IMG/VR virus record: IMGVR_UViG_3300046740_000431
Location: 28,027-92,026 of that record
Source: a virus
Direction: 5' to 3' (one strand)
DNA length: 64,000 nucleotides
Both the position numbers and the translations under genes were made by a program. Positions within the stretch are counted from its first letter, which is position 1, and each line of letters opens with the position of its first letter. This document shows positions 696-28,104 of this stretch, one piece after another. The notes below the pieces were generated by a model that saw nothing but the letters and a program-made list of their open reading frames with translations, ran no database searches and was not told the DNA's origin.

Positions 696-899
696 TCAGG
701 CTCTGACGAAGTCGCCGCTTCGATATTCGCCGTGATCGAAGCCCTCGTGCCGCACCCCACCGTGCGAGACCAGCCCGTCGTCCTGGTAGCACCGACATCC
801 GCCCTTCTCGACCTCGTCGCACCGGCAGCCCGGCCAGCGCGGAACCTGCGGAGCGCGCGGCGTCAGGTCGAGCTGGCCTTCGCGGACCCGGCCGCTCAC
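696..899 (-). CDS. small hypothetical protein
   Basis: GTG start overlaps terL stop (GTGA); contains CRC..CRC. Confidence 0.3.
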   Translation of the reverse strand: MSGRVREGQLDLTPRAPQVPRWPGCRCDEVEKGGCRCYQDDGLVSHGGVRHEGFDHGEYRSGDFVRA

Positions 900-2407
900 G
901 TTCGCCGCCGTCTCGAGGTGACGCCAGCCGGGGCCGCCGCCATGCGCGCGCCCTCGCGAGCGATCCACGTGGCCATGAGCCGATCCCCTGTGTGGCTCTT
1001 GGGGTCGTAGCGGAGCATCTCGTCGAGCAGCTTGCGGACCTCGGCGTTCATCGACGCCTGGAGCATCTGCGGCCCGAGGCGGGCGGCGCCGCGGTTAGGG
1101 ATGATCCACTTCCCGGCGGAGAACTCGATCGCGAGCGACTCGATCCCGTAGCTCGGATCGTACTTGTTCTTCCCCGTGTAGAACGCCTTGACCGGGACCG
1201 CGGTCTGGTCGTTGACGAACTGCTTGAGCATCCGCTGCTGGCCGTTGCTCTCGACGACCACGAGGGAGTTGTAGCGCTGGTTCACGTCCTTGATGCGCGA
1301 GACGATCTCGGGGCCTCCCCAGCGCCCGGCCTCGATGTTGAGCAGCTGGCGCGCCTGGTCCTTCTCGCGCACCGCGATCGTCACCAGGGCCGTCTCGTCG
1401 CCCGTCGTCGCCTTGGTCACCGCCAGGTCGACGCCGGTCACCGTGCGGTATCCCGCGGGGACCACGACCAGCGAATAGGCGAGCTCGATGCCGTCCCCGT
1501 TGAGGAGCGCCGCGCGCAGGTAGTCGAGCTTGAAGCGCCGGTCCGCGTCGGCGACCGGGTCGCAGAACAGCGAGCGCCGGGACTCGATGGGGCCGCGGTC
1601 CTCGATCGCCTTCTCGATGCGCTCGAGCGGCCACACCGACGGCCAGCTGGAGACCCCGTCCTGCAGCACGGGGTACTTGCGGGCGAAGGTGTTCGCCTCC
1701 GCCGCGTAGCGGTGCATGGCGTCGTCGGGGTGCCAGGCGTTGCCGATGAACCAGAGCCTGCCGTGTGCCGTGCGCCGCCCCTCGATCGTGCTCTTGAGCC
1801 AGCCGTAGTACTTCTCGCGCAGGTGGTCGCTGTGCGTGTTCACCGCGTCGAGGTAGTCGTCGATGATGATCAGGTCGTAGCGGCCGCCGAGCACGGATCC
1901 GCCGAACCCGGCCGCCTGGACCGTCGGATCCTTCGAGCGCGTGGCGCGCCGGACGATGAAGGCGTCCGCCTGCCACATCCCGGTGGTGTCGCTCTTGTCG
2001 GGCACGACGCCCGGGAAAACCATCCGGTACTCGATGGAGTTCTCGATGTAGTTCTTGATCGACTTGACGATCTTCTTCGGCCCGCCGGCGGCGCTCGCCA
2101 GGATCAGGATGCGGATGTTCGGGTTCCGGCCGATCTCCCAGAGCGTCCGGCCGACCGAGATCCCCGAGGTCTTCCCGGCCTCGGTGTGGGTCCAGATGAC
2201 CACGCGCGGGTGCTTGTCGAGGACGTCGTGCCAGTCCTCGTGCATCGGCGCGAGCTCGATGGGTAGGTTGGTCTCCTCGTCGCGGAGCACGAATTGGCAG
2301 AACACCACCGGGTCCGTGCGCGAGACCTCGGCGAGCTTGGCGAGCGCCGGCCCCAGCGTCTGCGCGGCCGCGATGGCCTTCGCGTGCGGCCGGGTGTCAG
2401 TTCGCAT
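896..2407 (-). CDS. terL: terminase large subunit
   Basis: Walker A-like HTEAGKT, Walker B DLIIIDD, coupling motif IGNAW, RNase H-like nuclease motifs TGVDLA, VVESNG, GDRLMA. Confidence 0.92.
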   Translation of the reverse strand: MRTDTRPHAKAIAAAQTLGPALAKLAEVSRTDPVVFCQFVLRDEETNLPIELAPMHEDWHDVLDKHPRVVIWTHTEAGKTSGISVGRTLWEIGRNPNIRILILASAAGGPKKIVKSIKNYIENSIEYRMVFPGVVPDKSDTTGMWQADAFIVRRATRSKDPTVQAAGFGGSVLGGRYDLIIIDDYLDAVNTHSDHLREKYYGWLKSTIEGRRTAHGRLWFIGNAWHPDDAMHRYAAEANTFARKYPVLQDGVSSWPSVWPLERIEKAIEDRGPIESRRSLFCDPVADADRRFKLDYLRAALLNGDGIELAYSLVVVPAGYRTVTGVDLAVTKATTGDETALVTIAVREKDQARQLLNIEAGRWGGPEIVSRIKDVNQRYNSLVVVESNGQQRMLKQFVNDQTAVPVKAFYTGKNKYDPSYGIESLAIEFSAGKWIIPNRGAARLGPQMLQASMNAEVRKLLDEMLRYDPKSHTGDRLMATWIAREGARMAAAPAGVTSRRRRT

Positions 2408-3056
2408 CGCCGGCCGGGGTCGGCGGGATCTCGTCGTGGCCCTGGTCGTCGTCGACCTCGACGGCGCTCGCGTCTACCACTGGCGGCGGGACCGGCGAAC
2501 TCGCGAGCGACTTCCTCCGCTGGGCCAGCTCGATGGTCGCCTGGGCGTGGGCGACGATGCGCGCGGCTTCCTCGGCCGATGCCGGCTCGATTCCGGTGGG
2601 GAGGAGGAGCGATCCGTCGTAGGCGTAGGCGCCGTCGATCCTGGCGATCTTGTCGGCCGCTGCCACCGCCGCGGTGATCAGCTGCGCCGCCTTGCTCTTG
2701 TTGGTGTCGTCCATCGCCAGCTTGGCCGCACGCTGGAACATCATGGTCAGCATCGCGCGGGTGCGCGCCTGCTTCCGGTTCTTGGGCGCCGCGACCTCAC
2801 CGTCGAGCGTCTCGAGCGCCCCGTTGAGGGCGGTCCTGGCCGCGGTGCGGCCGCATGCCCAGGTCTTCGGCTTACCGTCCGGGTTGGTGCCGGTGTGCTC
2901 CAGCCAGGTGATCACCTGGTCCGGGGAGTAGCCGAGGCCGAGCATCTCGCGAGCTCCGGCGAGGGCTAGCGCCTTCTGGGTGGCCTTCGGGACCGGGGCG
3001 GCGGGCGCCGGCAGCGCTGGGTCCGGCGGCCCGCTGGGCGTCTCGTCATCGGCCAC
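2397..3056 (-). CDS. putative terminase small subunit
   Basis: Helical ~220-aa protein directly upstream of and overlapping terL; start placed at GTG 3056, 7 nt after TGnTATCGT (track start 3065 also possible). Confidence 0.55.
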   Translation of the reverse strand: MADDETPSGPPDPALPAPAAPVPKATQKALALAGAREMLGLGYSPDQVITWLEHTGTNPDGKPKTWACGRTAARTALNGALETLDGEVAAPKNRKQARTRAMLTMMFQRAAKLAMDDTNKSKAAQLITAAVAAADKIARIDGAYAYDGSLLLPTGIEPASAEEAARIVAHAQATIELAQRRKSLASSPVPPPVVDASAVEVDDDQGHDEIPPTPAGDAN

Positions 3057-3095
3057 ATCTGGCACGATATCACGGGCCGCGTCGGATAACGGAGG

Positions 3096-3464
3096 TCAGT
3101 ACGGGATGGCCACCGCCATCGCCTGGACGACAGCCAGGAAGATGTCGTCCTTCGCTCGCTGCTCGGGTGGGAGCTGCGCATACGGGACGATACACGGGTG
3201 CTCCTTGGTGTCGGCGTTCTTGACCGGACCGTGCTTCCATCCGTCGGCTTGCTTGTTCCTGACCCATGACTCGTGCAGCTGCTCGGGCGTGTCGCCGACG
3301 AGCACGCGGGCCACGCCGTCGAGCGCGCTCGTGCGCTGCCACGCGGGCGCTTCGTCCCACCCGACCTGCGAGGTGTCGCCCATGGCGATGCAGTAGGCGC
3401 GATTGGCCTCGTGCGCGGCGCGCGCGCACGCGGTGAGGCGATGATCGATCTGTGTGTTCTCCAT
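3096..3464 (-). CDS. RyR (ryanodine-receptor repeat) domain protein
   Basis: AHEANRAY...LHESWVRNKQADGWKHGPVKNADTKEHPCIVPYAQLPPEQRAKD is the RyR-domain signature; start re-assigned to MENTQ. Confidence 0.88.
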   Translation of the reverse strand: MENTQIDHRLTACARAAHEANRAYCIAMGDTSQVGWDEAPAWQRTSALDGVARVLVGDTPEQLHESWVRNKQADGWKHGPVKNADTKEHPCIVPYAQLPPEQRAKDDIFLAVVQAMAVAIPY

Positions 3465-3499
3465 CGACGGCACGCTATCACGGGCGTGCCCGGTAAAGG

Positions 3500-3892
3500 T
3501 CACACCAGATCGTCGGAGACCAGCTGGTCGGCGCTGCGCCAACCCTGCCCGCGCGCGCCGCCAGCCAGCACCCATGCCACAACCGGCACCGCGTCGATCG
3601 CCACCTTACCGTAGGGCGGCGCGCCGTCGTCGAACACGTACAGCTCGACAGGCGGGACGCCGAGCGCCCGGGCATCGGCGATCCCGAAGTAGCGGAACGC
3701 GCCGCGATCGGCGATCTCGGCGAGCTCGCGCTCGACCGCTCTCGTGCACGTCGCCATCAGGTCGGCGGTGAGATCTCGACCGGCGTACGGTGTCATCGCG
3801 TGGACCGCGCAGAACCTGACCAGCTGGTCGAGCGGTCCGCGCGCCAGATCCCGGCGGCCACGCGCCAGCTTGCGCCTGATCGTCGAGATCAC
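3500..3892 (-). CDS. hypothetical protein
   Basis: C-terminal part of track ORF 3500..4312; GTG start coupled to the upstream stop. Confidence 0.5.
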   Translation of the reverse strand: MISTIRRKLARGRRDLARGPLDQLVRFCAVHAMTPYAGRDLTADLMATCTRAVERELAEIADRGAFRYFGIADARALGVPPVELYVFDDGAPPYGKVAIDAVPVVAWVLAGGARGQGWRSADQLVSDDLV

Positions 3893-4296
3893 TTCGGCCG
3901 CTTCCCCGGCCGCCACGGGAACACCTCGACCGGCTTGTGGCGGGCCACCATGCGGATGCACATGTCCGCGGTCCCGCTCGAGCGAGCGTCCCAGAACAGC
4001 AGCGCCGCGTCTCCGATCTCGGCCATCTGCCGGTTGCGCATCTTGGGGGCCAGCCACTTGCTGTGCTGGGAGATCATCCGGGGCGTGATCGGGCAGGGGA
4101 TCACCACTTTGCCGCGGGCCTCCGCCCAGGCCTTGCCGCAGAGGTCGGCGCCGCGAGCCAGCCCGCAGACCACGTGGGTCCACTCGCCGGGGACCCAGAG
4201 CAGACCAGTCGGATCGAGCTTGGAGATCGTCTCGTCGATCTCCTCGATCGACGGGTAGACGGTCTGGCTTCCGGCGATGATGACCGAGCGTATCAC
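3889..4296 (-). CDS. SLOG superfamily protein (YspA/DUF2493-like)
   Basis: VIIAGS, VVCGLARGADLCG, RNRQMA, LLFWD..S.GT motifs. Confidence 0.85.
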   Translation of the reverse strand: MIRSVIIAGSQTVYPSIEEIDETISKLDPTGLLWVPGEWTHVVCGLARGADLCGKAWAEARGKVVIPCPITPRMISQHSKWLAPKMRNRQMAEIGDAALLFWDARSSGTADMCIRMVARHKPVEVFPWRPGKRPK

Positions 4297-4577
4297 TTTG
4301 GTAGCCTATCAAGCCTGTTGATTGCCTGGGACCGCGTTATCCAGGCATCACCGGTCCACACGCGACATCGGCACCCGCCCGGATCTGCAGCTCGTCCGCT
4401 GCTGTGTGGACACGTCGCACTGTCGGCGAACAGGATCGAGTCCCACGGGGCGAACACGCTGCCACGCATCCTGAACACTGGCTCCCATCCCTCGCCGGAC
4501 ACGTCCCTGTCCCAAAGCACGGCTGCAAGAGGAAATTTGTCGCCGACCTCGCTGATAGTCATGCCGCTCTGGTTCAC
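4293..4577 (-). CDS. hypothetical protein
   Basis: 4-nt overlaps with both neighbours. Confidence 0.45.
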   Translation of the reverse strand: MNQSGMTISEVGDKFPLAAVLWDRDVSGEGWEPVFRMRGSVFAPWDSILFADSATCPHSSGRAADPGGCRCRVWTGDAWITRSQAINRLDRLPK

Positions 4578-5185
4578 GCCGACTTGCTCTTGGCACCCTC
4601 GAGCGAGCGCCGGTGGAACTCCTCAGCGGTGTAGCGGCGCCATGCCGGCTTGGAGATACGACATGGCATCGTAGCTGGCCCTCGGCCGATGCGGTGGACG
4701 CCGTCAGCGACGAATGCAACTCCTGCCTCGCAGAGGCCGCAGCGAACGGATTCCTCGTACAACCACACCTCGGCGATGAACCCGACGTCGAGGATCATCC
4801 CTGAGCACGACGGGCACGACGGTGGCCCGCCTGGCATCACGAGGCCGTCAGTGCCGATCTTGACGTGCACTAGGCCGCAGCTGCCGGGAAGCGGCGGACC
4901 ACCGTAGGCCGGCGGCGTGAGCATCGCCTCGTGGATCGCGCGGACCTCGGCGTGCTGGCAGATCGAGCCGCACCGCTTGCGGCAGTCATCGGTCCCGGTG
5001 CAACGGAAGTCTCCGGGCGGGCCGTTGTACCCACCACCCTTGCACGTCGCGAAGCGCTCGAGCGTGAACACCGAGGCGCCGCGGTTGCTCTTGATGCAGC
5101 CACCTGACCTCTGCCTGCCCTGGCGGGCTTCCTCCTCGGCGCGCGAGATCGAGTCACTTGGCGGTCTCGGTGATTTGTCGTTCAT
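4574..5185 (-). CDS. Cys-rich hypothetical protein
   Basis: Multiple CxxC/CxxxC motifs; TAGATT 8 nt upstream of ATG. Confidence 0.5.
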   Translation of the reverse strand: MNDKSPRPPSDSISRAEEEARQGRQRSGGCIKSNRGASVFTLERFATCKGGGYNGPPGDFRCTGTDDCRKRCGSICQHAEVRAIHEAMLTPPAYGGPPLPGSCGLVHVKIGTDGLVMPGGPPSCPSCSGMILDVGFIAEVWLYEESVRCGLCEAGVAFVADGVHRIGRGPATMPCRISKPAWRRYTAEEFHRRSLEGAKSKSA

Positions 5186-5215
5186 GGCCCGCCAATCTAC
5201 AGCGAGCCGCGGAGA

Positions 5216-5593
5216 TCAGCGAGCGAGATCCTCGACCTCGATCACGATGGCGTCGAGGTCGTCGTCGATCACCTCGATCACTCGACCGCCCGGATCGTGA
5301 TCGTCGCCCACGTCCTCGATCTTGCCGAGCTCGGCGACCAGGAACCTGGCGAGCGCGTCGACGTCACCGTCGCTCACCCCGCGGGGACCGCGGCGCACGA
5401 TCTCGCTGGCGATCCAGCGTGCCTCGGCGCGTCCGGGTGTCGGCCTGATGCTGTAGGGCTTTGTCACGGGCTCGGGGAGCACGACCGTGTGCGACTCGGT
5501 CTCGAACTCACCTGACACCACCGACAGCCGGCGGTTGTAGGATCTGGTCTCGATGTCCGGGACCGCCGGCGGCGGGTCGTCCGGGGTCCTCAC
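5216..5593 (-). CDS. hypothetical protein
   Basis: Coupled GTG start; acidic C-terminus. Confidence 0.45.
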   Translation of the reverse strand: MRTPDDPPPAVPDIETRSYNRRLSVVSGEFETESHTVVLPEPVTKPYSIRPTPGRAEARWIASEIVRRGPRGVSDGDVDALARFLVAELGKIEDVGDDHDPGGRVIEVIDDDLDAIVIEVEDLAR

Positions 5594-5850
5594 CGCAGAC
5601 CGATGGAGTAGATCCCGGCCAGCGCACAGGCGTCGCGGTCCGGCTCGAACGGACGCCACTGGCCGGGCGGCTGCTTGTCGGCCTGGTCGGCGCTACGCCA
5701 GAACACCTCGAGCTCCGTCTCGGCCCGCTCCGCCCTCGAGATCGCCGCGTCCCGCTCGGCGATCAGCGTGGCGATCGGCGAGGACGGGAAGCTCTCGATC
5801 GCGGACGCCCCGGTGCTGATCCCGCCAAGCGTGATGTCGTCGGTCGTCAC
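5590..5850 (-). CDS. hypothetical coiled-coil protein
   Basis: Coupled GTG start; LIAERDAAISRAERAE coiled coil. Confidence 0.45.
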   Translation of the reverse strand: MTTDDITLGGISTGASAIESFPSSPIATLIAERDAAISRAERAETELEVFWRSADQADKQPPGQWRPFEPDRDACALAGIYSIGLR

Positions 5851-6173
5851 TGGATCCCGCCCGCCTCGCGCACCATGCGATCGAACTCGTCCTCGTGCTT
5901 GGCACAGAAGACCGGCTCCTCGTGACCGGCCTTGGCCAGCTCGGCCTCGCACCCCGGCTCCCTGCACAAACCGAGGTCGGCGCGGGCGACGTGGAGCTTG
6001 CCGTCGATCGCCCGCTGACACACCCCGGCCGGGTCGAGCAGGATGGCGGCATCGCCGATCAGGTCGGCCTCGGCGGCGACCAGCGAGTCTGGAGCGTCGC
6101 TGTCGAGCAGCTGCTGCAGGCGCGCCACCCGCGTGACGATCAGACCCCTCGCGTGAGCTTCGATCTTCCCCAT
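5847..6173 (-). CDS. hypothetical protein
   Basis: ATG 7 nt after a -10 box; CxxxxC..CxxH motif. Confidence 0.55.
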   Translation of the reverse strand: MGKIEAHARGLIVTRVARLQQLLDSDAPDSLVAAEADLIGDAAILLDPAGVCQRAIDGKLHVARADLGLCREPGCEAELAKAGHEEPVFCAKHEDEFDRMVREAGGIQ

Positions 6174-6180
6174 GCCAAAG

Positions 6181-6253
6181 ACCGTACACACGAGAATCCC
6201 CTAAGTCAACCACCAGGTATCAGCTTGACCATTGGTGCACGCGGACACACCAT
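6181..6253. promoter_or_regulatory. back-to-back sigma70-type promoters, both leaderless
   Basis: Minus: TTGACT(6209-6204)-17 bp-TACGGT(6186-6181)-7 nt-ATG 6173. Plus: TTGACC(6225-6230)-17 bp-CACCAT(6248-6253)-7 nt-ATG 6261. Confidence 0.65.
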
Positions 6254-6260
6254 CCTTGGC

Positions 6261-6404
6261 ATGGCCCAACCATGTTGCCGATGCCGGGAATCACCCGCCC
6301 TGGCCAACTCTTCGATGTGCCGCTCCTGTTGGCAGGGTTGGTGGTGCGCGGTCGCCGACCTGTCGCGTCTCAGGATCTCCGAGCGGAGGTCGGCCGAGTC
6401 GTGA
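6261..6404 (+). CDS. small Cys-rich (Zn-finger-like) protein
   Basis: MAQPCCRC...MCRSC, 47 aa, follows the plus-strand promoter. Confidence 0.45.
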   Translation: MAQPCCRCRESPALANSSMCRSCWQGWWCAVADLSRLRISERRSAES

Positions 6405-6823
6405 GGGTAGCCGCGCTGGTCGTCGCGCTCGCTGGATGCTCCGGCACGTGGGGATCTGCCAGGCATGGCACAACGGCGGCGATGATCGCGAGCTCGGCGG
6501 CGGTCGCCTGCGACGTCGGCGGGACGATCTGGATGAGCCACAGCGGCAGGTACGACCGGATGAGCGACAGGGGCTACCAGCTCGCGGAGATGAACCCGCT
6601 CCTCGGCCACGAGCCGAGCCCGGCGACGCTCGTCGGGGCTGCCGTCGCGGTGATCGGCCTCAACTACGCCGTGCTAGAGTCGCCGCTACCAGCCTGGGTC
6701 AAGTCCGGCTGGTTCGGCGTGCTGGGCGCGGCAGAGGCGTACACCCTGGCTGGTAACGCTCGGTGGACCGGAGCCTGCGGGGTGGCCTGGACGCACGATG
6801 CCGGGATCTTTCCTGCCAGGTGA
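6401..6823 (+). CDS. putative membrane lipoprotein
   Basis: N-terminal lipobox VALAG-C, further hydrophobic helices, EMNPLL motif; GTG coupled to the upstream stop. Confidence 0.6.
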   Translation: MRVAALVVALAGCSGTWGSARHGTTAAMIASSAAVACDVGGTIWMSHSGRYDRMSDRGYQLAEMNPLLGHEPSPATLVGAAVAVIGLNYAVLESPLPAWVKSGWFGVLGAAEAYTLAGNARWTGACGVAWTHDAGIFPAR

Positions 6824-7114
6824 CAGGGCGTCCGGCAGCGGGATCCCGGCGATCTGCAGGTGATCCCCGGGCGAGAAGTCGTACCGCAGCGGCCTGCCGA
6901 TCTTGAGCTGCGTGGTGCCGGCGCCGAACTCCGTCTCCCATGCGCGGGCCAACCCACGGGCTACGGTCCACGAATCCACTGGGCCGATCGCGTACGCCCG
7001 CGGATCACGCACACGGGCGTCTACGACTCTGACGAGCAGGTACCACTGCTCACCGTGACGGAGCTTGGCTCCTCGTCGTCTGGCGTTTCTGCCCTGCCTT
7101 GATTCAGCGGTCAC
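6686..7114 (-). CDS. hypothetical protein
   Basis: TAATAT 6 nt before GTG; 3' end overlaps the convergent gene. Confidence 0.35.
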   Translation of the reverse strand: MTAESRQGRNARRRGAKLRHGEQWYLLVRVVDARVRDPRAYAIGPVDSWTVARGLARAWETEFGAGTTQLKIGRPLRYDFSPGDHLQIAGIPLPDALSPGRKDPGIVRPGHPAGSGPPSVTSQGVRLCRAQHAEPAGLDPGW

Positions 7115-7133
7115 GCGTGCATATTACGCCAGA

Positions 7134-7454
7134 TCACGGCGGCAGGATGCGGAGGGTCTCTGGCACGCGGAACGTCTGGGGCCGTCCGTCGGGCGACAGC
7201 CCGTGGAACAGCACCTCGTAGTCGCCGGGGATGTCGGTCTCGCCCGGCGACCAGTCGTGCCGGAGCTCGCCGACGCTCGACCCGACGGCCGACCCGGTGA
7301 GGATGACCGGCCCCAGGAGCTGGAACGTCAGCGTCCACCCGGTGAAGTCGAACCGGCCATCGATCCCGGTGACATCGGCGAAGTACGCCGGCAGCAAGTC
7401 GCCCTGGGTGATCTCGATCGGGGCGCTCGAGCTGGAGCAGGAGAAGCAGGTCAC
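7134..7454 (-). CDS. BppU N-terminal-like virion adaptor protein
   Basis: ITQGD.LP, FDFTG.T.TF, G.L.HDW..GETD.PG.YE.F pattern. Confidence 0.6.
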   Translation of the reverse strand: MTCFSCSSSSAPIEITQGDLLPAYFADVTGIDGRFDFTGWTLTFQLLGPVILTGSAVGSSVGELRHDWSPGETDIPGDYEVLFHGLSPDGRPQTFRVPETLRILPP

Positions 7455-7496
7455 GGCGCCCCTACGGTAACACGCCGGGTCGACGCGGTCGTAGGG

Positions 7497-7730
7497 TCAC
7501 TCGTTGCGGGCGATCGACGCGTTCGCCTGCATGACGCAGGTCTCGAGGCTGGTGAGCGCCAGCGACTGCTCGCGCGAGACCGGAGTCTCGGACGCGATCA
7601 GGATCGCCAGCTCGCGGGCCTTGTCGCGGATCGCCTGGTAGCGGGGCAGCTGGTCGTCCTTCGGGGCGTGGTAGACGAACGCGCTGTCGATCTGGGCGGT
7701 GACCTTGTCGGTCGGCGTGTACTTGGGCAT
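7497..7730 (-). CDS. Acb2/Tad1-like helical-hairpin anti-defence sponge candidate (77 aa)
   Basis: FVYHAPKDDQLPRYQAIRDKARELA...TPVSREQSLALTSLETCVMQANASIARNE; it is the C-terminal end of track ORF 7497..8333, with ATG at 7730. Confidence 0.78.
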   Translation of the reverse strand: MPKYTPTDKVTAQIDSAFVYHAPKDDQLPRYQAIRDKARELAILIASETPVSREQSLALTSLETCVMQANASIARNE

Positions 7731-7756
7731 GCGGCGGACGCTACACCGCCGGTCGA

Positions 7757-10516
7757 TCACCGGCCACCCAAGCGCGCCGTCACGACCGGGGAGACCCGCC
7801 TGGCGTGGACGGTCACCGGCGACGATGCGATCCCAGCTGGCTGCACGACCACGTGAGCCACGGCGTCGCCGATCGGCCGGCTCCTGCGCGGCGTGGTGTC
7901 CGGGTAGACCGGCGCCCAAGACATGTCCGGGGCCGGGGCGCTCGGGATGACGGCTTCCGGCGCGGCGGCGCCGCCCTCGCGAACGGGCGAGCGTGCACGG
8001 TCGACGCGAGCCGGGAACGCCGGCAGCCAGGACAGGTCGGGGACCGGTGCGGCCGCGATCGGCAGGAGCGGGTCGACGGCGCCGGCGATGTCGGCGCGGC
8101 GCGCGGGCCGGCGGGCACCGGCATCTGGCAGCCATGCGCTCACCGGCGGAGGAGGGACGAGCACCGGATCGGCCAGGCCGACCACTGCCGCTGGATGCCG
8201 ACGAGTCCGCGCCGTCCGCGTGTCGGTCGGCAACCAGTCGATCGGCGTGGACGGCTGCACGGGCGGCGCGGTCTCGCCACCGGCCGGACCTCGAGCAGCT
8301 CGAGGTGCCCTGTCTGGGTGGTGCGCGGCCCACGTCAGCGGCCCAGCGTTGGTGTCGCTCGGCGGCGCGGTCTCGCCGTCGGTTCGTGCCCGGCGCGGCC
8401 GCGGGGCAGGCTGGTAGACCGGGGCCCAGCTGAGCGGCGTCACGACCGGCGCGGCAACGACGATCGGCTCGACGGCTCCACCCTCGATCCGCGGGCGCGC
8501 GCGGCGCGTCGTCTCGGGTGCCGGGATCAGCCAGTCGAACGGCTGCAGGTCCGCCGAGACGGCCTGGAACGCGAGGAGCGCCATCTGGCCGCCCTCGTTG
8601 AGCCCGCCCTGGGCGCGGAAGCTGTACGTCCCCTTGAGGTCGACGAGCCGCGTGGCGATCTCGACCTGGATGTAGCCATTCGGGTTGACGTCACCCTCGG
8701 CGCACGCCCGGTGGATCTTGGCGAACCCGTCGAGGAACGTGAAGACGTGGTCCTGGTTGACGTCGCCGTTTCCGAAGATGATGGCGACGAGCAGCGCCTT
8801 GGCCGTGGTCGTGACGGTCCCGCTCGTGATGGTGGCCGCGGCACCGTTGGCGCGCTCGACGATGCTCGAGGCCTGCAGGATGGGGGCGTCGAAGATCTCG
8901 AGCCCTGCGATGACGACCTCGTCCTCGTTACCACCGACGTTCCCGATCGACGCCGACCACGTGTGCGCCGTCCCGCCGGCGGCGGAGATCTTCACGGCGA
9001 CGCTTGCCGAAGACCCGGCGAACGCGTCGTAGGGCCGCGGGGTCCCAGGGATGTACGTGTAGACGTTCCCGCGCGCGTCGGTCGCCTGGTTCGGCGACGA
9101 GGCCTGGTCGCCTCGAGCGAAGGCGGCGACGAGCGTCGAGTAGAGCGGCGCGGTGTCAGTCGTCCGCAGGAGCGTGTGCGTCCCGGTGCCTGCGCTCGTG
9201 ATGTCCACGACCGTGCCGGCCTTCGCGAGCGCAGGGGACAGCGCCAGCTTGAGGGTCGTGCCGGTCGGTGCCGCGACGAAGTACGGCGTGACGCCGTCGG
9301 TGTTGCCCGGGAACGTTCCGGTGGTCGCGATCAGGAACGGGCCGGCGCACAGCACCATGCCGTGCGCCGCGGTGGTCAGCGTGTCGGTCGACGCGTCGGC
9401 GGTGAACGTGAGGTCCGTGCCAAACGTGGTGAGCGAACCGCCGGTAAACGCGAGCCCGCTCAGGATGTTCTGGCGCACGGCGGCGCCACCGGTGGTCAGC
9501 CTGGCACCGCCGCCGAACGGAGGAGCGAAGCTGCTCTCGAAGAACGCTCGGCGAGCTCGTGGCGAGCGATCGGCGAACGTCGGCAGCCAGCCGATGCCCG
9601 GCGTGGGAGCCGCCGGCAGCGTGGCCTCGGGCGCGACGTGGCCGCCTACCAGGACCGCCGCTCGAGCTCGTGGCGCGCGGTCCGCGAAGCTCGGCGCCCA
9701 GCTGAGCAGGGGCTCGGTGGGGTTCTGGATCGTCGCCTCGGGACCGGCCATCCCTCCGACGATCGCGGCCGCGCGCGGGCGGGGTGCGCGATCGGGGAAG
9801 GTCGGCGACCACGAGAGCGGCGGCGCGCCGGCGTTGACGTCCGGCGCTTCCGGCTCTACGACGTCCCCGGTGCGCGCGGGCGCCGCGCGGCGAGCTTGGC
9901 GGTCCGGCATGGACGGCAACCACGAGCAGTCGGGGAGCGCGGGGCCAGGCGCAGGCGTCGTCACCGGAGCGGCGAGCACCGACAGCATCAACGCGGCCGC
10001 GGTCACCCGCTGGCGCCCCGGCTCGCCGAACCACGGCATCCACGGGACCTCCGGTGCCGTGTCGTCGATGCTCGAGATCGTGCCGTCGAACGTGAACTGG
10101 TTGGCGGTGAACTGCCCGGACTCGAGCGTCTGGGTCGGGTCGACGTAGGGTCCAGCCGTGGTGAACGCGAACGTCCCGTTCCCGGTGGTCGCGCCGGAGA
10201 TCGTCACCGAGCGCGACGCCGGCCTGGCATCGATGATCACGGTGATCGCCTGCCCGGCCGACCACGTCATCGGCTGCGAGAACACGAGCACGTCGCCCGG
10301 CGTCGTGTAGAGCTCGAGGCTGGCGTCGTCGAGCCAGATCCCGCCGTTCGGCTGGGCGAACAGGCTGTGGAAGTTGCCGCCGGTGAACGCCGTCGACGCC
10401 AGCGTGGGCGTGAACGTGAAGCGCCAGATCCCCGTGTTGATGGCGAGCGCCGTCGAGGCGAAGGTGTTCGCCGCGAACGTCTGCGGCGTCGCCGTCACCC
10501 TGAGCAGCGTGGTCAT
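7757..10516 (-). CDS. large repeat-containing virion or fibre-like protein (919 aa)
   Basis: Thr/Gly-rich beta domains alternating with Pro/Arg-rich segments carrying about 12 'LSW.P.F.DR.PR.R' repeats. Confidence 0.7.
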   Translation of the reverse strand: MTTLLRVTATPQTFAANTFASTALAINTGIWRFTFTPTLASTAFTGGNFHSLFAQPNGGIWLDDASLELYTTPGDVLVFSQPMTWSAGQAITVIIDARPASRSVTISGATTGNGTFAFTTAGPYVDPTQTLESGQFTANQFTFDGTISSIDDTAPEVPWMPWFGEPGRQRVTAAALMLSVLAAPVTTPAPGPALPDCSWLPSMPDRQARRAAPARTGDVVEPEAPDVNAGAPPLSWSPTFPDRAPRPRAAAIVGGMAGPEATIQNPTEPLLSWAPSFADRAPRARAAVLVGGHVAPEATLPAAPTPGIGWLPTFADRSPRARRAFFESSFAPPFGGGARLTTGGAAVRQNILSGLAFTGGSLTTFGTDLTFTADASTDTLTTAAHGMVLCAGPFLIATTGTFPGNTDGVTPYFVAAPTGTTLKLALSPALAKAGTVVDITSAGTGTHTLLRTTDTAPLYSTLVAAFARGDQASSPNQATDARGNVYTYIPGTPRPYDAFAGSSASVAVKISAAGGTAHTWSASIGNVGGNEDEVVIAGLEIFDAPILQASSIVERANGAAATITSGTVTTTAKALLVAIIFGNGDVNQDHVFTFLDGFAKIHRACAEGDVNPNGYIQVEIATRLVDLKGTYSFRAQGGLNEGGQMALLAFQAVSADLQPFDWLIPAPETTRRARPRIEGGAVEPIVVAAPVVTPLSWAPVYQPAPRPRRARTDGETAPPSDTNAGPLTWAAHHPDRAPRAARGPAGGETAPPVQPSTPIDWLPTDTRTARTRRHPAAVVGLADPVLVPPPPVSAWLPDAGARRPARRADIAGAVDPLLPIAAAPVPDLSWLPAFPARVDRARSPVREGGAAAPEAVIPSAPAPDMSWAPVYPDTTPRRSRPIGDAVAHVVVQPAGIASSPVTVHARRVSPVVTARLGGR

Positions 10517-12124: not shown

Positions 12125-14164
12125 TCAAGCTGCCCTCGCGTACTCGATCGTGCGGATCGCAGCCATGCCGACGGCGCGCGCGAGCTGCGGAGGCACGCTG
12201 TTTCCGACGCATTTGATCTGCGCGGTTTTGGTGAGCGGCTTCCCGCGGAACAGCAGCTCGATCTTGTAGCTCGGCGGGAAGCCCTGGCAGAGGAACAACT
12301 CGCGCGCCGTGAGCATGCGGAACCCGATGTCGACGAGGACCCACTGCACGCCGTCAATCTCGAGGACGATCGGCGCGTCGTAGCCCAGGAACCTGGCCAC
12401 GCGCATCGCCCGCTCGCTGACCTCGAGCTCCATGGTGAGCGTGACCAGCGCGAAGCGATCCCGGGTGTCGATGGTCGACAGCGGCTTGGCGAGCGACTCC
12501 GGCCCGCTCTCGCCGTTGTAGCGGATCAGGTACGCGGCGGTCATCGCGTGATGCGTGCCGGACGCCGAGATCGTGTCCAGCGGCTCCTCGACGGCGTGGC
12601 TCGACGCGGCCACGTGCGCGTCGCTCGTCCCGCGCAGCTTTAGCAGGTTGAGCATGGCCACCGAGTGGTGGTCGCGCTGGGTGATCGTGCCGATCGGCGC
12701 GTTCATTCGCTGGCCGCCAGCGAAGCCGCCCTCGCGCTCGCCGTAGTTCTTGACCAGCACGGGCATCGCCAGTCCGTGCTTCTGGGTGCCGACGATAGTC
12801 CCGATCGGCTTCTGGGCGTCGTAGACGCGGGGCTCCTGCGCCTTCGTGGTCTCGGTGGCTCCTCGCTCGCCGTTCGAGCGATGGACGAGGTACGGGGTCG
12901 CCACCGCCAGGCGCCTTGAGGTGTCGATCGTCGAGAGCGGTTCGTCTGGCCGCTGACCGCGCGCCTCGCCGTCGCGCTGGCCGTTGTACCGGACGACCAC
13001 GGGCGCTGCCACGGCGTGCTCGCCGCGCTTCGACGTCATGATCGTGGTGAGCGGCACGTCGGCGTTTTGCGCGTCGTTGCCGCCGCCGCCGTACGTCTTC
13101 GCCTTGAGCACGAGCGGCGACACGACGCCGTGGCCGTCGCGGTTGCCGCAGATCGTCCGCATCGGCTCGTCCACGCTCGAGACGCGAACGTCCGTCCCGC
13201 CCTTGTCGCCGTAGGACGTCGGCACAATGAACGGGCGACCGGCACCGAACACGAAGCGCTCGATCCCGGCCCGGATCCGCGCGAGCGTCTTCTCGGCGAG
13301 CGCCTTTGCCCGCTCGAAGATCGAGGGGCACTCGATCGACCAGTCGATGCACTCGGCCGCGGTTCGCCACGGCTTCGCCCGGTTCGGGCCGTGCGTGGGC
13401 TCTGGCCACACGGCCGGGTTGTCGCTGGCGATCAGCACGAACCGCTTCCGGCTCGTCGGCGCGCCGTAGTCGCTCGCCTTCAGGACGCGGTACGAGACGT
13501 GCCGGTAGTACTTCCCGAGCCTCGAGATGAACGCGTTGAACAGCGACCCGATGCGCGCCTTGATCGGCCGCATGAAGTTGCAGTTCTTGAGGCACTTCGG
13601 GCGCCGCTTCCCGCTCTTGGTATCCGTCCCCCGCCGCGCGGCGAGCTCGTCGCTGCACCCGTTCGAGTGGCAGCGGTGGAGCGGACCCCACTTCATGAAC
13701 GGCTCGACGTTCTCGAGCGACATCACGCGCGGCCTGACCGCCGACGCTGCCCACGAGACCGCGATCCAGGCGAGCCCGCGCACCTTGGTCGCTTCCTTGT
13801 CGAGCGGCCCGCCCTTGGCCTGCGAGAAGAAGATGCACGTAGGCGAGAAGTGCGCGTAGGCGATCCGCTTCCCGCCGCTCGCCGCGACCGGGTCGACCTT
13901 CACGATGTCCTCGCAGAACACCCGGCACCTGGGGTTGTTCTCCTCGTACATGGCCAGCGCGGCCGCCCAGTGGTTCACCGCGATCGTCGGTGCCCGGCGC
14001 TCGATGCCGAGTTCCTCGTACGCCCACCTCATGCCCAGGCTCGCGCCTCCACCGCCGGCGAAGTTGTCGGCGTCTGGCTCGTCGGGATCTACCCAGACGC
14101 GGAGCGGCGGAGCGCTGGCCGGCTCACCGTCGCAGAACAGCTGCAGCTGAGGTCTCACCTTCAC
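12125..14164 (-). CDS. C5-cytosine DNA methyltransferase
   Basis: Motif I FAGGGGAS, IV FSPTC, VI ENV, VIII GAPTSRKR, X GNSVPP; long variable region with repeated P(L/I).TI units. Confidence 0.93.
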   Translation of the reverse strand: MKVRPQLQLFCDGEPASAPPLRVWVDPDEPDADNFAGGGGASLGMRWAYEELGIERRAPTIAVNHWAAALAMYEENNPRCRVFCEDIVKVDPVAASGGKRIAYAHFSPTCIFFSQAKGGPLDKEATKVRGLAWIAVSWAASAVRPRVMSLENVEPFMKWGPLHRCHSNGCSDELAARRGTDTKSGKRRPKCLKNCNFMRPIKARIGSLFNAFISRLGKYYRHVSYRVLKASDYGAPTSRKRFVLIASDNPAVWPEPTHGPNRAKPWRTAAECIDWSIECPSIFERAKALAEKTLARIRAGIERFVFGAGRPFIVPTSYGDKGGTDVRVSSVDEPMRTICGNRDGHGVVSPLVLKAKTYGGGGNDAQNADVPLTTIMTSKRGEHAVAAPVVVRYNGQRDGEARGQRPDEPLSTIDTSRRLAVATPYLVHRSNGERGATETTKAQEPRVYDAQKPIGTIVGTQKHGLAMPVLVKNYGEREGGFAGGQRMNAPIGTITQRDHHSVAMLNLLKLRGTSDAHVAASSHAVEEPLDTISASGTHHAMTAAYLIRYNGESGPESLAKPLSTIDTRDRFALVTLTMELEVSERAMRVARFLGYDAPIVLEIDGVQWVLVDIGFRMLTARELFLCQGFPPSYKIELLFRGKPLTKTAQIKCVGNSVPPQLARAVGMAAIRTIEYARAA

Positions 14165-14751
14165 GGGGTCTCCAGCGTAGCCCTGGCCGCGACGTATCGA
14201 CCGTCGGCGGCCAGCTCGTCGGCCTCGAAGTTGGACACCAAGATCTCGACGAGATCCCGGGTTGCGGTCTCGAGCTCCCGGATCCGCTCGAGCAGCTCGC
14301 AGATCTCGCCCTCGCGCAGCAGGAGCTCATCGCAGACCACGCGCGTGCTCTCGTCACCGGCGCCACGGCCGCGGAGATCCGCCACCGCAGCTGAGACCAT
14401 GCCGGCCCTGGAGCGCAGCGCCTCGTACGTGAGCGACGAGATCCCGTCACCTGCACGGGGGATCATACCGTATGTAGATCCCTCCGGTTGGATCCCCTCT
14501 CCTTGGCAGGCAAGGCAGGCGCCGGTCCCGCGGCAGGTCCGGCACATCGCCGCGAGCCAGAGGCAGTCGGGCAGGTGGTCCACCGCGTAGGCAGCCGTAC
14601 CCTGCGTGACGGGAACCCCGGCGCAGCGGCACAGCTCCGACGGGTGCTCGCCGCCGGAGACCTTCGGCCAGACGAACGGCTTGGGCTCTGGCGCGAGCAG
14701 CATCCTCCACGCGCGGCGCTGCTGGCGTAGGAACGTCGCGATCCGCCTCAT
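14161..14751 (-). CDS. hypothetical protein
   Basis: Coupled ATG; CxxCxGxG motifs and a coiled coil. Confidence 0.45.
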   Translation of the reverse strand: MRRIATFLRQQRRAWRMLLAPEPKPFVWPKVSGGEHPSELCRCAGVPVTQGTAAYAVDHLPDCLWLAAMCRTCRGTGACLACQGEGIQPEGSTYGMIPRAGDGISSLTYEALRSRAGMVSAAVADLRGRGAGDESTRVVCDELLLREGEICELLERIRELETATRDLVEILVSNFEADELAADGRYVAARATLETP

Positions 14752-17730: not shown

Positions 17731-17740
17731 GTTCCCTCCG

Positions 17741-17834
17741 TGCACCAGGCGGGGCTCGAACCCGCGACCTTCGCAGCCGGACCGGAGGTATGACGCTCCG
17801 ACCGCGGACGCTCTACCGTCTGAGCTACCGGTGC
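17741..17834 (-). ncRNA. tRNA-like RNA with enlarged (38-nt) anticodon arm
   Basis: Acceptor GCACCGG/CTGGTGC plus A, D arm GCTC-AGACGGTA-GAGC, variable AGGTC and T arm GCGGG-TTCGAGC-CCCGC are canonical; the anticodon arm is TCCGCGGTCGGAGCGTCATACCTCCGGTCCGGCTGCGA. Confidence 0.8.
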
Positions 17835-21174: not shown

Positions 21175-21789
21175 TTATCGTCGCTTACCCGTGAATGTCA
21201 ACGAACGTCCGGCCGGCTGTGGATAAGGCACCAGGAACGGAGCTCGCCAGATCGCGGCCGCCGATGAGATCCCGGACTCGATGGCCTGCGGCACGATGGC
21301 GACCGGGACGCCGGCAGCCAGCGCAGCGGCAACGTCAGGGCGTCCTGTGAGAAGCGGATCGGTCATCGCGACCACTGCGTCGGCGCGCTGCGCCAGCGCA
21401 GCGGCGGCCTCGGCCTTCATATGGTGGGGCTCGGTCCTGACGAGGTACGGGGACACAGCGAAGATCCCCATGGTCTCGAGCCAGGATGCGTGCTGGCAAC
21501 CCTGCGCCGCCCAGTCCCCTGGCCACGCCAGGTAGACCACCAGCGGGATTCCGAGCGCCGCCAGCGCGGCCGGCGCGATCCTCACCTGGCGAGGCGCCAT
21601 GGCGCTCGCGCGGGCGCCGGATAGCATGTGCCCGTCGGCCGTCGCCCGGCGGACCATCTGCACGGTGGCGGCCGGGCTCCTGCCCGTGGCCTTGGCGATC
21701 TCGACCGCCACCGGAGGCCGGTGGAGCTCTATGGCGAGGCGCTGGACCTGGCGAAGCCACGAAGCTCGGCGCGCCGGGATCAGCTTCAC
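21175..21789 (-). CDS. LexA-like wHTH fused to an alpha/beta domain
   Basis: RPPVAVEIAKATGRS...VRR; coupled GTG start. Confidence 0.5.
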   Translation of the reverse strand: MKLIPARRASWLRQVQRLAIELHRPPVAVEIAKATGRSPAATVQMVRRATADGHMLSGARASAMAPRQVRIAPAALAALGIPLVVYLAWPGDWAAQGCQHASWLETMGIFAVSPYLVRTEPHHMKAEAAAALAQRADAVVAMTDPLLTGRPDVAAALAAGVPVAIVPQAIESGISSAAAIWRAPFLVPYPQPAGRSLTFTGKRR

Positions 21790-23525
21790 GCCGGCCTCGC
21801 CTTCCTGCGCAGCACGTCCTCGGCGAGCCGCCTGATGTGGTCGTCGGCTGCGCCTTTGAACTCCGGCATGCCGGACGCGTCGGGGTTCAGGAGGTAGTGC
21901 GACTGGGCCTCCTTGATGCCGAGCACGTCGGAGATCACCGGGTCGCTGCCCTCGTCGGCGAGCGGGACGTAGATCGTCACCGGCTGGGTCTGCCCATCGC
22001 GGTGCAGGCGGCCGATGTCCTGGTGGATCACCTGCGGTGACCAGTCGAGCTCTCCGATGACGCCAGTCCTGCACACGGACTGGAGGCCATCGAGCCCGGC
22101 GCCGGCGCGCAGCGAGATGATCAAGACCTGGGCATCACCCTCGACGAACCGCTTCCTGGCCGCGTCCTTCTGGCCTTCGCTCTGCTTCCCGGTGTAGAGC
22201 GCGTACCGGATCGGCGTCGTGTGGCGCTCGAACGAGTCGGCCCACAAGCTGTAGACCTCGTGGTGCCAGCCGAACAACACGACCTTGTCGCCGCCGTCGA
22301 CCAGCATGCGGACCAGGTCAGCCACCGCGCCGGCCTTTGCGATCCCGGTGGCCTGTCGGAGCCTCCAGTCGAGCTCTCCGGCGCTCTGCATCCGTTCGGT
22401 CGGTGACCCGATCCTGTCGAGCACCCGGCGCGCGAGCTCGGCGACGTCGGCGGACGCCTTGTTGATCGCGTCCGGGTCGCACTCGACGGCGTGCCTCACC
22501 ACCGTGAGCTCCGGGATCTCGCGGCCGACGTCCTTCCGGGTGCGCCGGATCATCAATCCGCTCTCGCGCAGGTAGCTGCCGAGCGCCGCGGGGTCCTGGA
22601 CCGACGCCTTGCCGTCCTGCCCCGGCGGGCCTCCGCACCACTCGTCGTAGAACTCCTTGTGCGTGCCGAGCTGCCCAGGCGCGATCACCTCCATCACGTT
22701 GAAGATCTCGTTGCCGTAGTTGTAGACCGGCGTCGCCGTGAGCCCGATCCGCAGGTCGGCGGCCTGCGCGAGCGCCACGCCGGCCGCGTACTTCTTCGTC
22801 CCCGCGTGCCTGAATTCCTGCGCCTCGTCCATGATCACCGTGCGGGCCACGCCGGCCAGCGACTCCACCCAGCCGTGGAGCTTGTGGTAGTTGATCAAGA
22901 GCACATCGGGCACGCTCTTGCTCCTGACCATCGAGCGGCGCTTGGTGACCGGGTCCCGCTCCATGCGGATGTCCGTGAACGGGTACGGCTGGGCCTTGCG
23001 GATCCGATGGACGCGCAGCTTCGGCGCGAAGCGCGCGAGCTCGCGCTCCCACTGCCTGGTGAGGTGGGTCATCGTGATCACAACGGCGGGCAGGGTTCCG
23101 GGCGCCGTGAGCGCGCAGATCGCGGTGACCGTCTTGCCGGTCCCGAGGTCGTCGGCGATGAGCAGGTTACCGGTGCGCAGCGCGAGGTCGGCGCCGAGCC
23201 GCTGGTACTCGCGGGCCGGCAGCGCGAGCTCGAACGCGCGCGGCACGTAGTCGGCCATGTCGATCGCCTCGATGGCCGCGAGCTTCGCTTCCTGCTCGCC
23301 GATCAGCGACCGGAACTTCGCCTCGGACTTGGCGTCGACCTCGAGCGGGTGCCTCTCGCGGAACCAGTCGAGGTCGTAGGCGTGCTCCGGGGTCGCGGAG
23401 AGCTTGAACACCCCGGCCCGGTACCGCTGCGCGCCGCCGAACAGCCTCCGCAGCCGGATGCTCACGTGTGCCGGCGCGGTGATGATGAGCTGGTCGTCTT
23501 CGATTCGGATTGCGCCTGGGGTCAC
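21786..23525 (-). CDS. SNF2-family helicase
   Basis: IADDLGTGKT, IMDEAQ, LTATP, AGAGLDGLQ, QDIGRLHRDGQ. Confidence 0.92.
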   Translation of the reverse strand: MTPGAIRIEDDQLIITAPAHVSIRLRRLFGGAQRYRAGVFKLSATPEHAYDLDWFRERHPLEVDAKSEAKFRSLIGEQEAKLAAIEAIDMADYVPRAFELALPAREYQRLGADLALRTGNLLIADDLGTGKTVTAICALTAPGTLPAVVITMTHLTRQWERELARFAPKLRVHRIRKAQPYPFTDIRMERDPVTKRRSMVRSKSVPDVLLINYHKLHGWVESLAGVARTVIMDEAQEFRHAGTKKYAAGVALAQAADLRIGLTATPVYNYGNEIFNVMEVIAPGQLGTHKEFYDEWCGGPPGQDGKASVQDPAALGSYLRESGLMIRRTRKDVGREIPELTVVRHAVECDPDAINKASADVAELARRVLDRIGSPTERMQSAGELDWRLRQATGIAKAGAVADLVRMLVDGGDKVVLFGWHHEVYSLWADSFERHTTPIRYALYTGKQSEGQKDAARKRFVEGDAQVLIISLRAGAGLDGLQSVCRTGVIGELDWSPQVIHQDIGRLHRDGQTQPVTIYVPLADEGSDPVISDVLGIKEAQSHYLLNPDASGMPEFKGAADDHIRRLAEDVLRRKARPA

Positions 23526-24322: not shown

Positions 24323-24359
24323 CGGACGCCCATGGCTGCACCGAGACCGTCGAGACTGC

Positions 24360-27714: not shown

Positions 27715-28104
27715 TCACGCCTCGCCTCGGATCTCTCGGAGCTTGACCTCGAGCTTGGCGCGATGCTCGTAAGCTTCGGCGATCCGCTCCTCGATGGTCG
27801 CTCGAGCGGTCTCCAGCCGGACGATGTCAGCGCTGATTGCGTCGCGCGCCTCACGAACCGCCGCCGCCTCGGAGATGTTCTCCTCTGACCTGCCCGGCGC
27901 CGGCCGCGCCATCGAGACCGCATCGGTGATCCGCGGCACGAGCGAGCTGGACTTCGCCTTGGTCAGGACGTGGCCGACGGCGGCGTGCGAGGTCCCGGCC
28001 GCTCGCGCGACGTCGGCGATCGAGAGGCCGGCGTCCTTCATCCTCGCGATGACGCTCGAGCGCCACTCCTCGGTGACCGGGTGATCGGAGATCGCGTGGA
28101 TCAC
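27715..28104 (-). CDS. XRE-family HTH regulator
   Basis: GLSIADVARAAGTSHAAVGHVL plus C-terminal coiled coil. Confidence 0.75.
   Translation of the reverse strand: MIHAISDHPVTEEWRSSVIARMKDAGLSIADVARAAGTSHAAVGHVLTKAKSSSLVPRITDAVSMARPAPGRSEENISEAAAVREARDAISADIVRLETARATIEERIAEAYEHRAKLEVKLREIRGEA

Follow-up and report, generated by a model that had tools for sequence, protein, structure and literature searches.

Two 2026 preprints have described phage RyR-domain proteins that act on cyclic ADP-ribose (cADPR) signals. RyDEP (Mycobacterium phage DyoEdafos gp78; Protein Data Bank [PDB] 35TM; pocket residues H75, W78, H100 and D117) acts as a glycosidase, breaking the ribose-ribose bond in 2'cADPR and 3'cADPR, giving ADPR; six of eight tested homologues bound signals and none cleaved them, and two, H4 and H7, act as nanomolar sponges and overcome type I Thoeris, H7 by binding without cleavage (PMC13232231). 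RyR Tad (Pectobacterium phage vB_PatP_CB1 gp68) was found independently; its C-terminal domain (residues 65–183) alone sponges 1''-3' gcADPR with a dissociation constant of 43 nM, and its binding residues are H129, W132, K147, H154, K170 and D171 (10.64898/2026.06.04.730250). This RyDEP / RyR Tad family is characterised by homodimers formed via helices α1 and α4. Proteins of the Acb2 family assemble as hexamers whose ligand pockets lie where protomers meet, and anti-signalling hotspots and fused sponges (Acb4-Sequestin) have been described in N4-like phages. Here we analyse a 64,000-nucleotide stretch of viral DNA (the window; positions 28,027–92,026 of IMG/VR record IMGVR_UViG_3300046740_000431) and conclude that its region 3056–7730 is probably an accessory anti-signalling hotspot, in which a putative cADPR sponge of the RyR type (3096–3464) and a putative cyclic-dinucleotide sponge of the Acb2 type (7497–7730) would be accompanied by passengers, a SLOG-fold protein (3889–4296) and a series of ORFans.

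The window has a GC content of ~69%, at which raw open reading frame (ORF) lists are crowded with shadow frames, and genes were therefore called by the frame signal in third-position GC (GC3). The region 3056–7730 is an array of ~11 small minus-strand genes in which the RyR Tad-type and Acb2-type genes are 4 kb apart, with ORFans and the SLOG gene between them. The original prediction had placed these three small genes near the terminase, and all three are indeed on the minus strand at the positions given above; the large terminase subunit gene (TerL, 896–2407, minus strand; phrog_38, E 3.5e-57; GC3 0.96) marks the downstream end of the array.

The RyR gene (minus strand) encodes a stand-alone RyR/R12 domain of 122 residues (pI 5.7), as had been proposed. 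The protein matches PF02026 at E 3.4e-11 (43.7 bits; cut-off 27.4), RyR channels in the PDB at ~1e-19 and RyDEP itself (35TM) at E 3.3e-12. Its start was assigned to ATG 3464 because GC3 fades above ~3450, homologues align from approximately residue 3, and a TAGCGT box lies 7 nt upstream; a 159-residue ORF from ATG 3575 was rejected, since GC3, homologue boundaries and the promoter box all favour ATG 3464. The protein shares 58% identity over 116 residues with a Pectobacterium phage Nepra protein (residues 66–181 of the latter), a region whose sequence agrees with that given for H7 in the supplement on RyDEP (PMC13232231), and ~60% identity with CB1 gp68. The link between phage RyR proteins and ADPR-derived signals, which the original prediction had mentioned, is real for both RyDEP (PMC13232231) and RyR Tad (10.64898/2026.06.04.730250), and the published residues for binding or catalysis are all kept. 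A gapless alignment with RyDEP places H64, W67, H89 and D106 on H75, W78, H100 and D117, at a constant offset of 11, and the six RyR Tad binding residues are kept, also without gaps, as H64, W67, K82, H89, K105 and D106. These six pocket positions are invariant in seven relatives. By its sequence, the RyR protein is a new, divergent member of the RyDEP / RyR Tad family.

Compared with RyR Tad, the protein belongs to the same R12/RyR fold family, shares 58–60% identity across the whole C-terminal domain and has nearly the same extent as the minimal active fragment (65–183), whereas the N-terminal β domain of gp68 is missing from it. The phages differ too: gp68 comes from an N4-like enterobacterial phage and the RyR protein, whose binding is a prediction, from a soil phage of 69% GC. 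RyDEP shares with it the Pfam family and the small, stand-alone form, but the identity is 44% over just 55 residues, and the gene in the window is outside any NARP1 operon. On the strength of the Nepra identity, the six retained residues and the near-minimal length, we assign the protein to this family and consider a sponge mode more likely than a glycosidase mode. That the protein is a glycosidase like DyoEdafos RyDEP, cleaving 2'cADPR and 3'cADPR to ADPR, appears quite improbable to us: equivalents of the catalytic dyad (H64 and D106) are present, together with W67 and H89, but none of the eight other tested homologues cleaved despite conserved residues, and the resemblance to RyDEP falls short of the 58% identity to the sponge H7 / RyR Tad. 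Judged by these nearer relatives, catalysis is unlikely. Genes of the NARP1 type that would use ADPR (NAPRTase, PRPP-synthetase-like) were not found on the contig, nor were the PRPP-synthetase N domain, Tad2 or a Macro domain; for the NARP1 genes this is weak evidence because the contig is incomplete (69% complete).

At the other end of the array, the Acb2-family gene (7497–7730, minus strand) encodes 77 residues (pI 5.8), the final 77 codons (GC3 0.99) of a spurious 278-residue ORF. The protein matches PF24729 across nearly the full profile (positions 2–58 of 58; E 5e-16, 59.1 bits, cut-off 27) and phrog_1454 at E 1.3e-20, and PF24729 is present in every listed homologue. It belongs to a clade with the strongly conserved pattern F-x-Y-H-x-P ... 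SRE.SLALT.LE..VMWANASIARNE, and Hadary et al. (2025) count the F-x-Y-H-x-P clade within Acb2. The closest tested relative, Acb2_4, is 52% identical and inhibited only the Escherichia albertii 3'3'-cGAMP CBASS among seven systems; Acb2_20, 33 and 35 are further cGAMP-positive members of the clade (Hadary et al., 2025). An AlphaFold2 model (predicted local distance difference test [pLDDT] score 90.6) consists of a short helix (8–16) and two long ones (25–48 and 53–76). This architecture, a short N-terminal helix followed by a long helical hairpin, and the full-length PF24729 match are shared with Acb2_4, PaMx33 Acb2 and T4 Vs.4; the hexamer and ligand of the protein in the window are predictions. 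From its sequence it can soundly be regarded as a new, divergent Acb2 family member, and our best guess, with moderate confidence in the ligand, is that it acts as a cyclic-dinucleotide sponge, for 3'3'-cGAMP first.

Fold searches did not discriminate, a helical hairpin being too generic for them. A PDB search with the single Acb2-like sequence gave no match, and Foldseek returned nothing at E ≤ 0.001 for the model, with Vs.4 and Tad1 only at E 1.8–4.5. The clade profile found Acb2_43 (9PTQ) best in the PDB, at E 3e-4, followed by Tad1 at E 7e-3. With VIA, the 9PTQ hairpin superposes on the model with a Z of 6.0 and a root-mean-square deviation (rmsd) of 1.8 Å over 57 residues, which is within helical-hairpin noise. 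Acb2_43 sponges 3'cADPR in a pocket made by N- and C-terminal β strands, with L6, V7 and H5, whereas the model has an N-terminal helix instead, and the nearer relative Acb2_4 failed to block Thoeris. The gene had been called Acb2/Tad1-like, and only the Acb2 half of that label holds (PF24729; 52% identity to Acb2_4). The protein shares with Tad1 (CbTad1, SBSphiJ7 Tad1) the hairpin motif SRE..aLT.lEEa.mW.N, but Tad1 chains are 120–140 residues long and carry it only in their C-terminal part (~87–121). A Tad1 identity was rejected because the protein is too short and all helical: only residues ~87–121 of Tad1 chains of 123–138 residues match the 77-residue protein.

We examined the co-occurrence of the three families in viral loci. 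RyR genes lie within 5 kb in six of 80 Acb2-clade viral loci, directly adjacent in three of them; the six RyR-Acb2 lineages show no similarity to one another in nucleotide sequence, and their GC contents span 35–65%. The adjacent pairs (L099:7311–7877, L098:2449–3140 and L141:9424–10198) are co-directional with gaps of 3–60 nt, on unrelated contigs of 35%, 59% and 65% GC, respectively. This frequency exceeds both that of RyR genes near SLOG homologues (0/80; Fisher P 0.014) and the rate at which RyR occurs in phage records (0.57%; binomial P 7e-6). Among 80 RyR loci, L209:9953–10531 (plus strand) is a single ORF with both RyR and Acb2 domains (L209/P0153). Querying 1.8 billion cluster representatives with this fusion returned many two-domain proteins; ten representatives were checked by Pfam, and five have RyR then Acb2, two Acb2 then RyR, and two tandem RyR-RyR domains. 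The fusions include P0170, P0204, P0258, P0169, P0162 and P0165, and the tandem proteins are P0161 and P0166. Seven longer relatives of the Acb2-like protein in the window were returned, none with a listed RyR domain. RyR and Acb2 modules co-occur beyond chance. Neither the linkage nor the fusions were found in the two RyR preprints (PMC13232231; 10.64898/2026.06.04.730250).

The SLOG gene behaves differently. In viral loci centred on SLOG homologues (±10 kb), RyR was found in none of 80 and an Acb2-clade gene in one of 80; conversely, SLOG was absent from all 160 RyR-centred or Acb2-centred loci. Over whole records of SLOG homologues, RyR occurs in 1/50 and PF24729 in 2/50. A single 149-kb contig holds all three genes, dispersed, and in Kuttervirus Maynard the SLOG and RyR genes are 15 kb apart. 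The trio of RyR, SLOG and Acb2 is thus not conserved as a set. Where the original prediction had envisaged an anti-signal set of three, testable by co-occurrence in related phages, the RyR-Acb2 part stands, by co-occurrence and fusions, and the SLOG part does not, with either partner.

Could the proximity of these genes be a by-product of a hypervariable accessory region that gathers unrelated small genes, its meaning limited to each gene's own role? Seven to eight ORFans without homologues in related loci separate the genes, the nearest SLOG and RyR relatives (L001 and L087) lack the other genes, and most array genes have a promoter-like box of their own. Against this, the RyR-Acb2 linkage is recurrent, up to fusion in both orders, and hotspots in which anti-signalling genes cluster have been documented. 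We regard the by-product explanation as somewhat unlikely, and prefer that of an anti-signalling hotspot. The array resembles the N4-like hotspot (Acb4-Sequestin, Bes1, Bes2, Tad2, Tad3, RyR Tad) in being a compact small-gene locus with several nucleotide-signalling inhibitors among unknowns. It differs in position, being upstream of the terminase whereas the N4-like hotspot lies between the primase and the virion RNA polymerase, and also in phage lineage, in content (RyR, Acb2 and SLOG) and in its leaderless-type boxes.

The hotspot would sit between DNA-metabolism/DNA-modification genes and the terminase of an uncultivated high-GC soil phage. A dimer of the RyR protein would bind 3'cADPR and 2'cADPR in a pocket formed by H64, W67, K82, H89, K105 and D106, and this sequestration would keep Thoeris effectors off. 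A hexamer of the Acb2-like protein would sequester CBASS cyclic dinucleotides, 3'3'-cGAMP first, while the SLOG protein and ORFans may be passengers of the same hotspot, of unproven function. We infer the ligand, oligomer state and expression timing of the RyR and Acb2-like proteins from their sequences, and several observations weigh against this picture. The published residues fail to separate sponge from glycosidase RyDEPs. In the Acb2-like protein, as in a few relatives, Gln occupies the position of the usual Trp in the MWAN motif, a difference from the common Acb2 pattern. Specificity is labile within the Acb2 clade: a more distant member, Acb2_27, is active against type I Thoeris as well as a cUA CBASS, while Acb2_17, 37 and 38 blocked nothing tested (Hadary et al., 2025). 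The contig has a completeness of 69% (CheckV). Finally, the RyR promoter core described below is shared with the adjacent downstream gene, which may encode a small terminase subunit, and not with the Acb2 gene, so RyR expression could be late rather than early.

The original prediction also held that two of the genes have the same TAGCGT box in a leaderless arrangement. TAGCGT-N7-ATG occurs exactly twice in the window (0.04 expected), at the RyR and Acb2 starts: a −10 box at 3472–3477, 7 nt from ATG 3464, and a −10-like box at 7738–7743, 7 nt from ATG 7730 and just past the stop of the 919-residue gene upstream (both on the minus strand). The SLOG gene has a −10-like TAGGCT, preceded by TGA, at 4303–4308 (minus strand), 6 nt from its start at GTG 4296. 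The underlying TANNNT pattern is wider than had been claimed. Genome-wide, it peaks 6–7 nt from qualifying starts, with 13 cases seen and 2.8 expected from other spacings (Poisson P ~9e-6), and five of the 13 fall in the 4.7-kb array. At 6–9 nt, TANNNT precedes the minus-strand array starts at 3056, 3464, 4296, 5185, 6173, 7454 and 7730; an eighth box, TAATAT 6 nt before the start at 7114, is outside the GC3 filter. Three of these eight boxed starts have the TGN of an extended −10, and none has a Shine-Dalgarno sequence. The starts at 3892 and 4577 overlap preceding stop codons, and the genes they open look translationally coupled. Boxes 6–9 nt before starts, missing Shine-Dalgarno sequences and two stop-overlapping starts together suggest that the array is made up of leaderless mono- or bicistronic units. 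Leaderless architecture is typical of Actinobacteria.

A sigma-70 consensus scan of 2300–8000 found no consensus promoter, and a terminator scan of the same interval found a single terminator-like site, no more than chance would give. The RyR promoter has a 16-nt core, CCCGTGATAGCGTGCC, which lies at 3469–3484 (minus strand) and contains the TAGCGT −10. In the degenerate form CCCGTGATAKCGTGCC it recurs exactly before the gene at 2397–3056, where the 16-nt core is CCCGTGATATCGTGCC (3061–3076, minus strand; extended −10 type); 0.00 such recurrences are expected by chance. The core can be written CCCGTGATA(T/G)CGTGCC, and both copies are followed by 4 nt and then the start codon. Co-regulation of the three genes as a trio, as originally proposed, is not borne out: TANNNT boxes stand at most array genes, and the RyR core recurs before the next gene, not before Acb2. 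An inverted repeat, CCGGT-GATCG-ACCGG (7749–7763, minus strand), spans the stop of the 919-residue gene immediately upstream of the Acb2 −10; it might form a terminator stem or serve as an operator.

The SLOG gene (3889–4296, minus strand) encodes a stand-alone SLOG-fold protein of 135 residues (pI 9.5) of the YpsA/YAcAr clade. On Pfam alone the label is weak because the match to YAcAr (PF10686; E 0.005, 17 bits) is below the cut-off of 28.2; 17 of 31 clade members match PF10686 at E ≤ 0.01, the best at 2e-6. The protein matches phrog_289 at E 1.5e-15, and Atlas puts it in viral YAcAr/DprA clusters at 0.93–0.95. An AlphaFold2 model built from 31 homologues (pLDDT 95.7) has its best structural matches all within the SLOG superfamily: VIA Z scores are 11.5 for YpsA (120 aligned residues, rmsd 3.1), 10.5 for a LOG-like Moco carrier, 10.3 for ShosA, 9.9 for DprA, and 9.5 (6lhx), 8.2 (8bto) and 7.5 (7uxs, the 3'cADPR complex) for ThsA. 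Foldseek gives DprA at 6.5e-5 and EcThsA at 1.8e-3, with a probability of 1.00. A PDB search with the single sequence gave no match, and the clade profile gave only noise against PDB sequences, with no sequence-level similarity to ThsA. The protein shares with YpsA/YAcAr (DUF2493) and the ThsA SLOG domain the Rossmann-like fold, the Gly-rich loop after strand 1 (IIAGS) and the G-x-D (GAD) and S-x-G-T-x-D motifs; it differs from them in its sub-threshold Pfam match and in the lack of detectable sequence similarity to ThsA. Conserved polar residues are S10, D51, R87, N88, D103, S106 and D111. The earlier call of a stand-alone SLOG domain is therefore supported by the model's fold matches and phrog_289, with Pfam below threshold: judged by the modelled fold the protein is a SLOG of the YpsA/YAcAr type, and it is a candidate nucleotide binder.

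According to a proposal by Iyer et al. (2022), YpsA-like SLOGs of viruses would either bind cADPR-type signals or degrade them. No experimental test of this proposal, or of any viral YAcAr protein, was found in the literature searched, and the anti-signal idea for SLOG is therefore a pre-existing hypothesis. In its strongest form, all three genes would be one dedicated, co-regulated counter-signalling set in which cADPR-type or related signals would be bound or hydrolysed by the SLOG protein, in the way that the ThsA SLOG binds 3'cADPR. The ThsA matches, conserved polar residues of the kind seen in nucleotide pockets, the 2022 proposal and the location of the gene, which has a member of a proven sponge family on either side of it within the array, would fit such a set. 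So would one viral contig (G024; L039:10001–10875), the only one with a neighbouring SLOG homologue and Acb2-family gene, which are ~300 nt apart on opposite strands. But the co-occurrence counts given above (0/80, 1/80 and 0/160) speak against it, as do the missing sequence-level similarity to ThsA, the equal or higher scores of YpsA, ShosA and DprA, a box type that is not specific to the trio, and the lack of any experiment on a viral YAcAr protein in that literature. We therefore think a three-gene set unlikely. A related idea, that the SLOG protein is the first of a new phage anti-signalling family, either a SLOG-sensor decoy that sequesters an NAD-derived or other nucleotide immune signal or an N-glycosidase destroying such a signal, and that some neighbouring ORFans with leaderless-type boxes are further inhibitors, is equally doubtful.

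Approximately 30 close homologues of the SLOG protein (50–70% identical) occur in high-GC metagenomic contigs, and P0128, P0129, P0132, P0133 and P0136 among them carry a C-terminal helix-turn-helix (HTH) domain (HTH_23, HTH_28); in these proteins the SLOG domain may be the ligand sensor of a DNA-binding regulator. More distant relatives (~28–42% identical), annotated 'GTP-binding domain' in phages, are found in N4-like phages (early left-end region), Kuttervirus and many others, and a DUF2493 domain is fused to the ICP1 HelB helicase. The SLOG protein might accordingly act on DNA or as a ligand-sensing regulator, in DprA-like handling of single-stranded DNA or recombination, as a helicase cofactor or as the sensor half of a SLOG-HTH regulator, rather than as a sponge, and would then have no connection with the RyR and Acb2 sponges. 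DprA and the DprA-like ShosA are the top Foldseek matches, four of the 31 clade members match the DprA Pfam family, the protein is basic, and close homologues lie among replication and methylase genes; the HTH-bearing homologues and the helicase fusion fit as well. The other domains of DprA are missing, however, the top Z goes to YpsA rather than DprA, and the N4-like phage relatives are among early host-takeover genes, a position that also fits an anti-defence role. A role on DNA or in regulation is possible, and we give it more credence than a counter-signalling role for SLOG, without favouring it outright.

With these RyR and Acb2 proteins, a high-GC soil phage adds compact and divergent members to two proven sponge families. 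The families themselves and the 2022 SLOG hypothesis were already known; the divergent RyR and Acb2 members are new. With little beyond the minimal active domain, the RyR protein is useful for comparisons of specificity. Recurrent RyR-Acb2 adjacency and two-way fusion suggest a frequent need to blunt Thoeris-type and CBASS-type signals jointly, and the natural RyR-Acb2 fusions are potential dual sponges. The SLOG protein and the 7–8 ORFans form a shortlist of candidate inhibitors selected for the company they keep; should more inhibitors indeed be present in the array, what they target would hint at host defence systems.

The remaining array genes were annotated as follows (all on the minus strand unless stated). 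A 219-residue gene at 2397–3056 (GC3 0.89–0.92; TATCGT, 7 nt, GTG) overlaps the TerL start; it has a weak match to DUF5681 (E 0.045) and no PHROG match, and by position only it is a possible small terminase subunit gene. The ORFan at 3500–3892 encodes 130 residues if it begins at GTG 3892, a codon overlapping the SLOG stop with an SD-like GGGGAAG upstream of it, or 98 residues if it begins at ATG 3796 (GC3 0.84–0.90 over 3526–3800); it has no Pfam, PHROG or usable Atlas match. ORFans of 94 residues (4293–4577, its start overlapping the upstream stop) and 203 residues (4574–5185; TAGATT, 8 nt, ATG), both called on their GC3 frame signal, have no Pfam or PHROG match. The other ORFans are of 147 residues (5216–5659), 108 residues (5847–6173), 142 residues (6686–7114; TAATAT, 6 nt, GTG) and 106 residues (7134–7454; TACCGT, 9 nt, GTG). 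No homologue of any array ORFan was found in the 247 related viral and metagenome-assembled genome (MAG) loci scanned (for the ORFan at 3500–3892, L172 was outside the scan). The 108-residue gene is the sole array gene with a recognisable −35: a full sigma-70-like promoter (6135–6176) runs TTGACT, a 17-nt spacer, TACGGT and 7 nt to ATG 6173. A short gene is possible at 5590–5800. In the stretch 6206–6830, which gave no family match, the GC3 signal (6376–6700) fits either a plus-strand ORF at 6272–6823, overlapping the gene at 6686–7114, or a minus-strand ORF at 6370–6573.

The window makes up the final 64 kb of one viral contig of 92,026 bp (IMG/VR class linear), whose sole full match among public sequencing runs is a soil metagenome, probably the source sample; no RNA run is listed among the matches. 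The minus strand carries most genes of 1–37 kb. In the order of their transcription, a DnaB-like helicase (35461–37056), a Mom-like DNA modification protein (23522–24370, minus strand), a DNA helicase (21786–23681), a 733-residue DNA methyltransferase (12125–14326, minus strand) and a 919-residue gene (7757–10516, minus strand; GC3 0.90), which forms the upstream border and has no Pfam or PHROG match, precede the small-gene array and TerL. With the methyltransferase and Mom-like protein, the phage DNA is probably also guarded against restriction. TerL is ~25% identical to Streptomyces phage terminases and the DnaB-like protein reaches no more than 31% identity with those of diverse isolated phages, and by these sequences the phage appears to be without close cultured relatives. 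The MAG contigs of close SLOG homologues are binned to Xanthobacteraceae, Kofleriaceae and Galbitalea, which are mutually inconsistent as a host clue. ARAGORN predicts two tRNA genes on the minus strand, a tRNA-Met (CAT) at 105–179, next to the window's terminase end, and a tRNA-Pro (CGG) of unusual length (95 nt) at 17740–17834.

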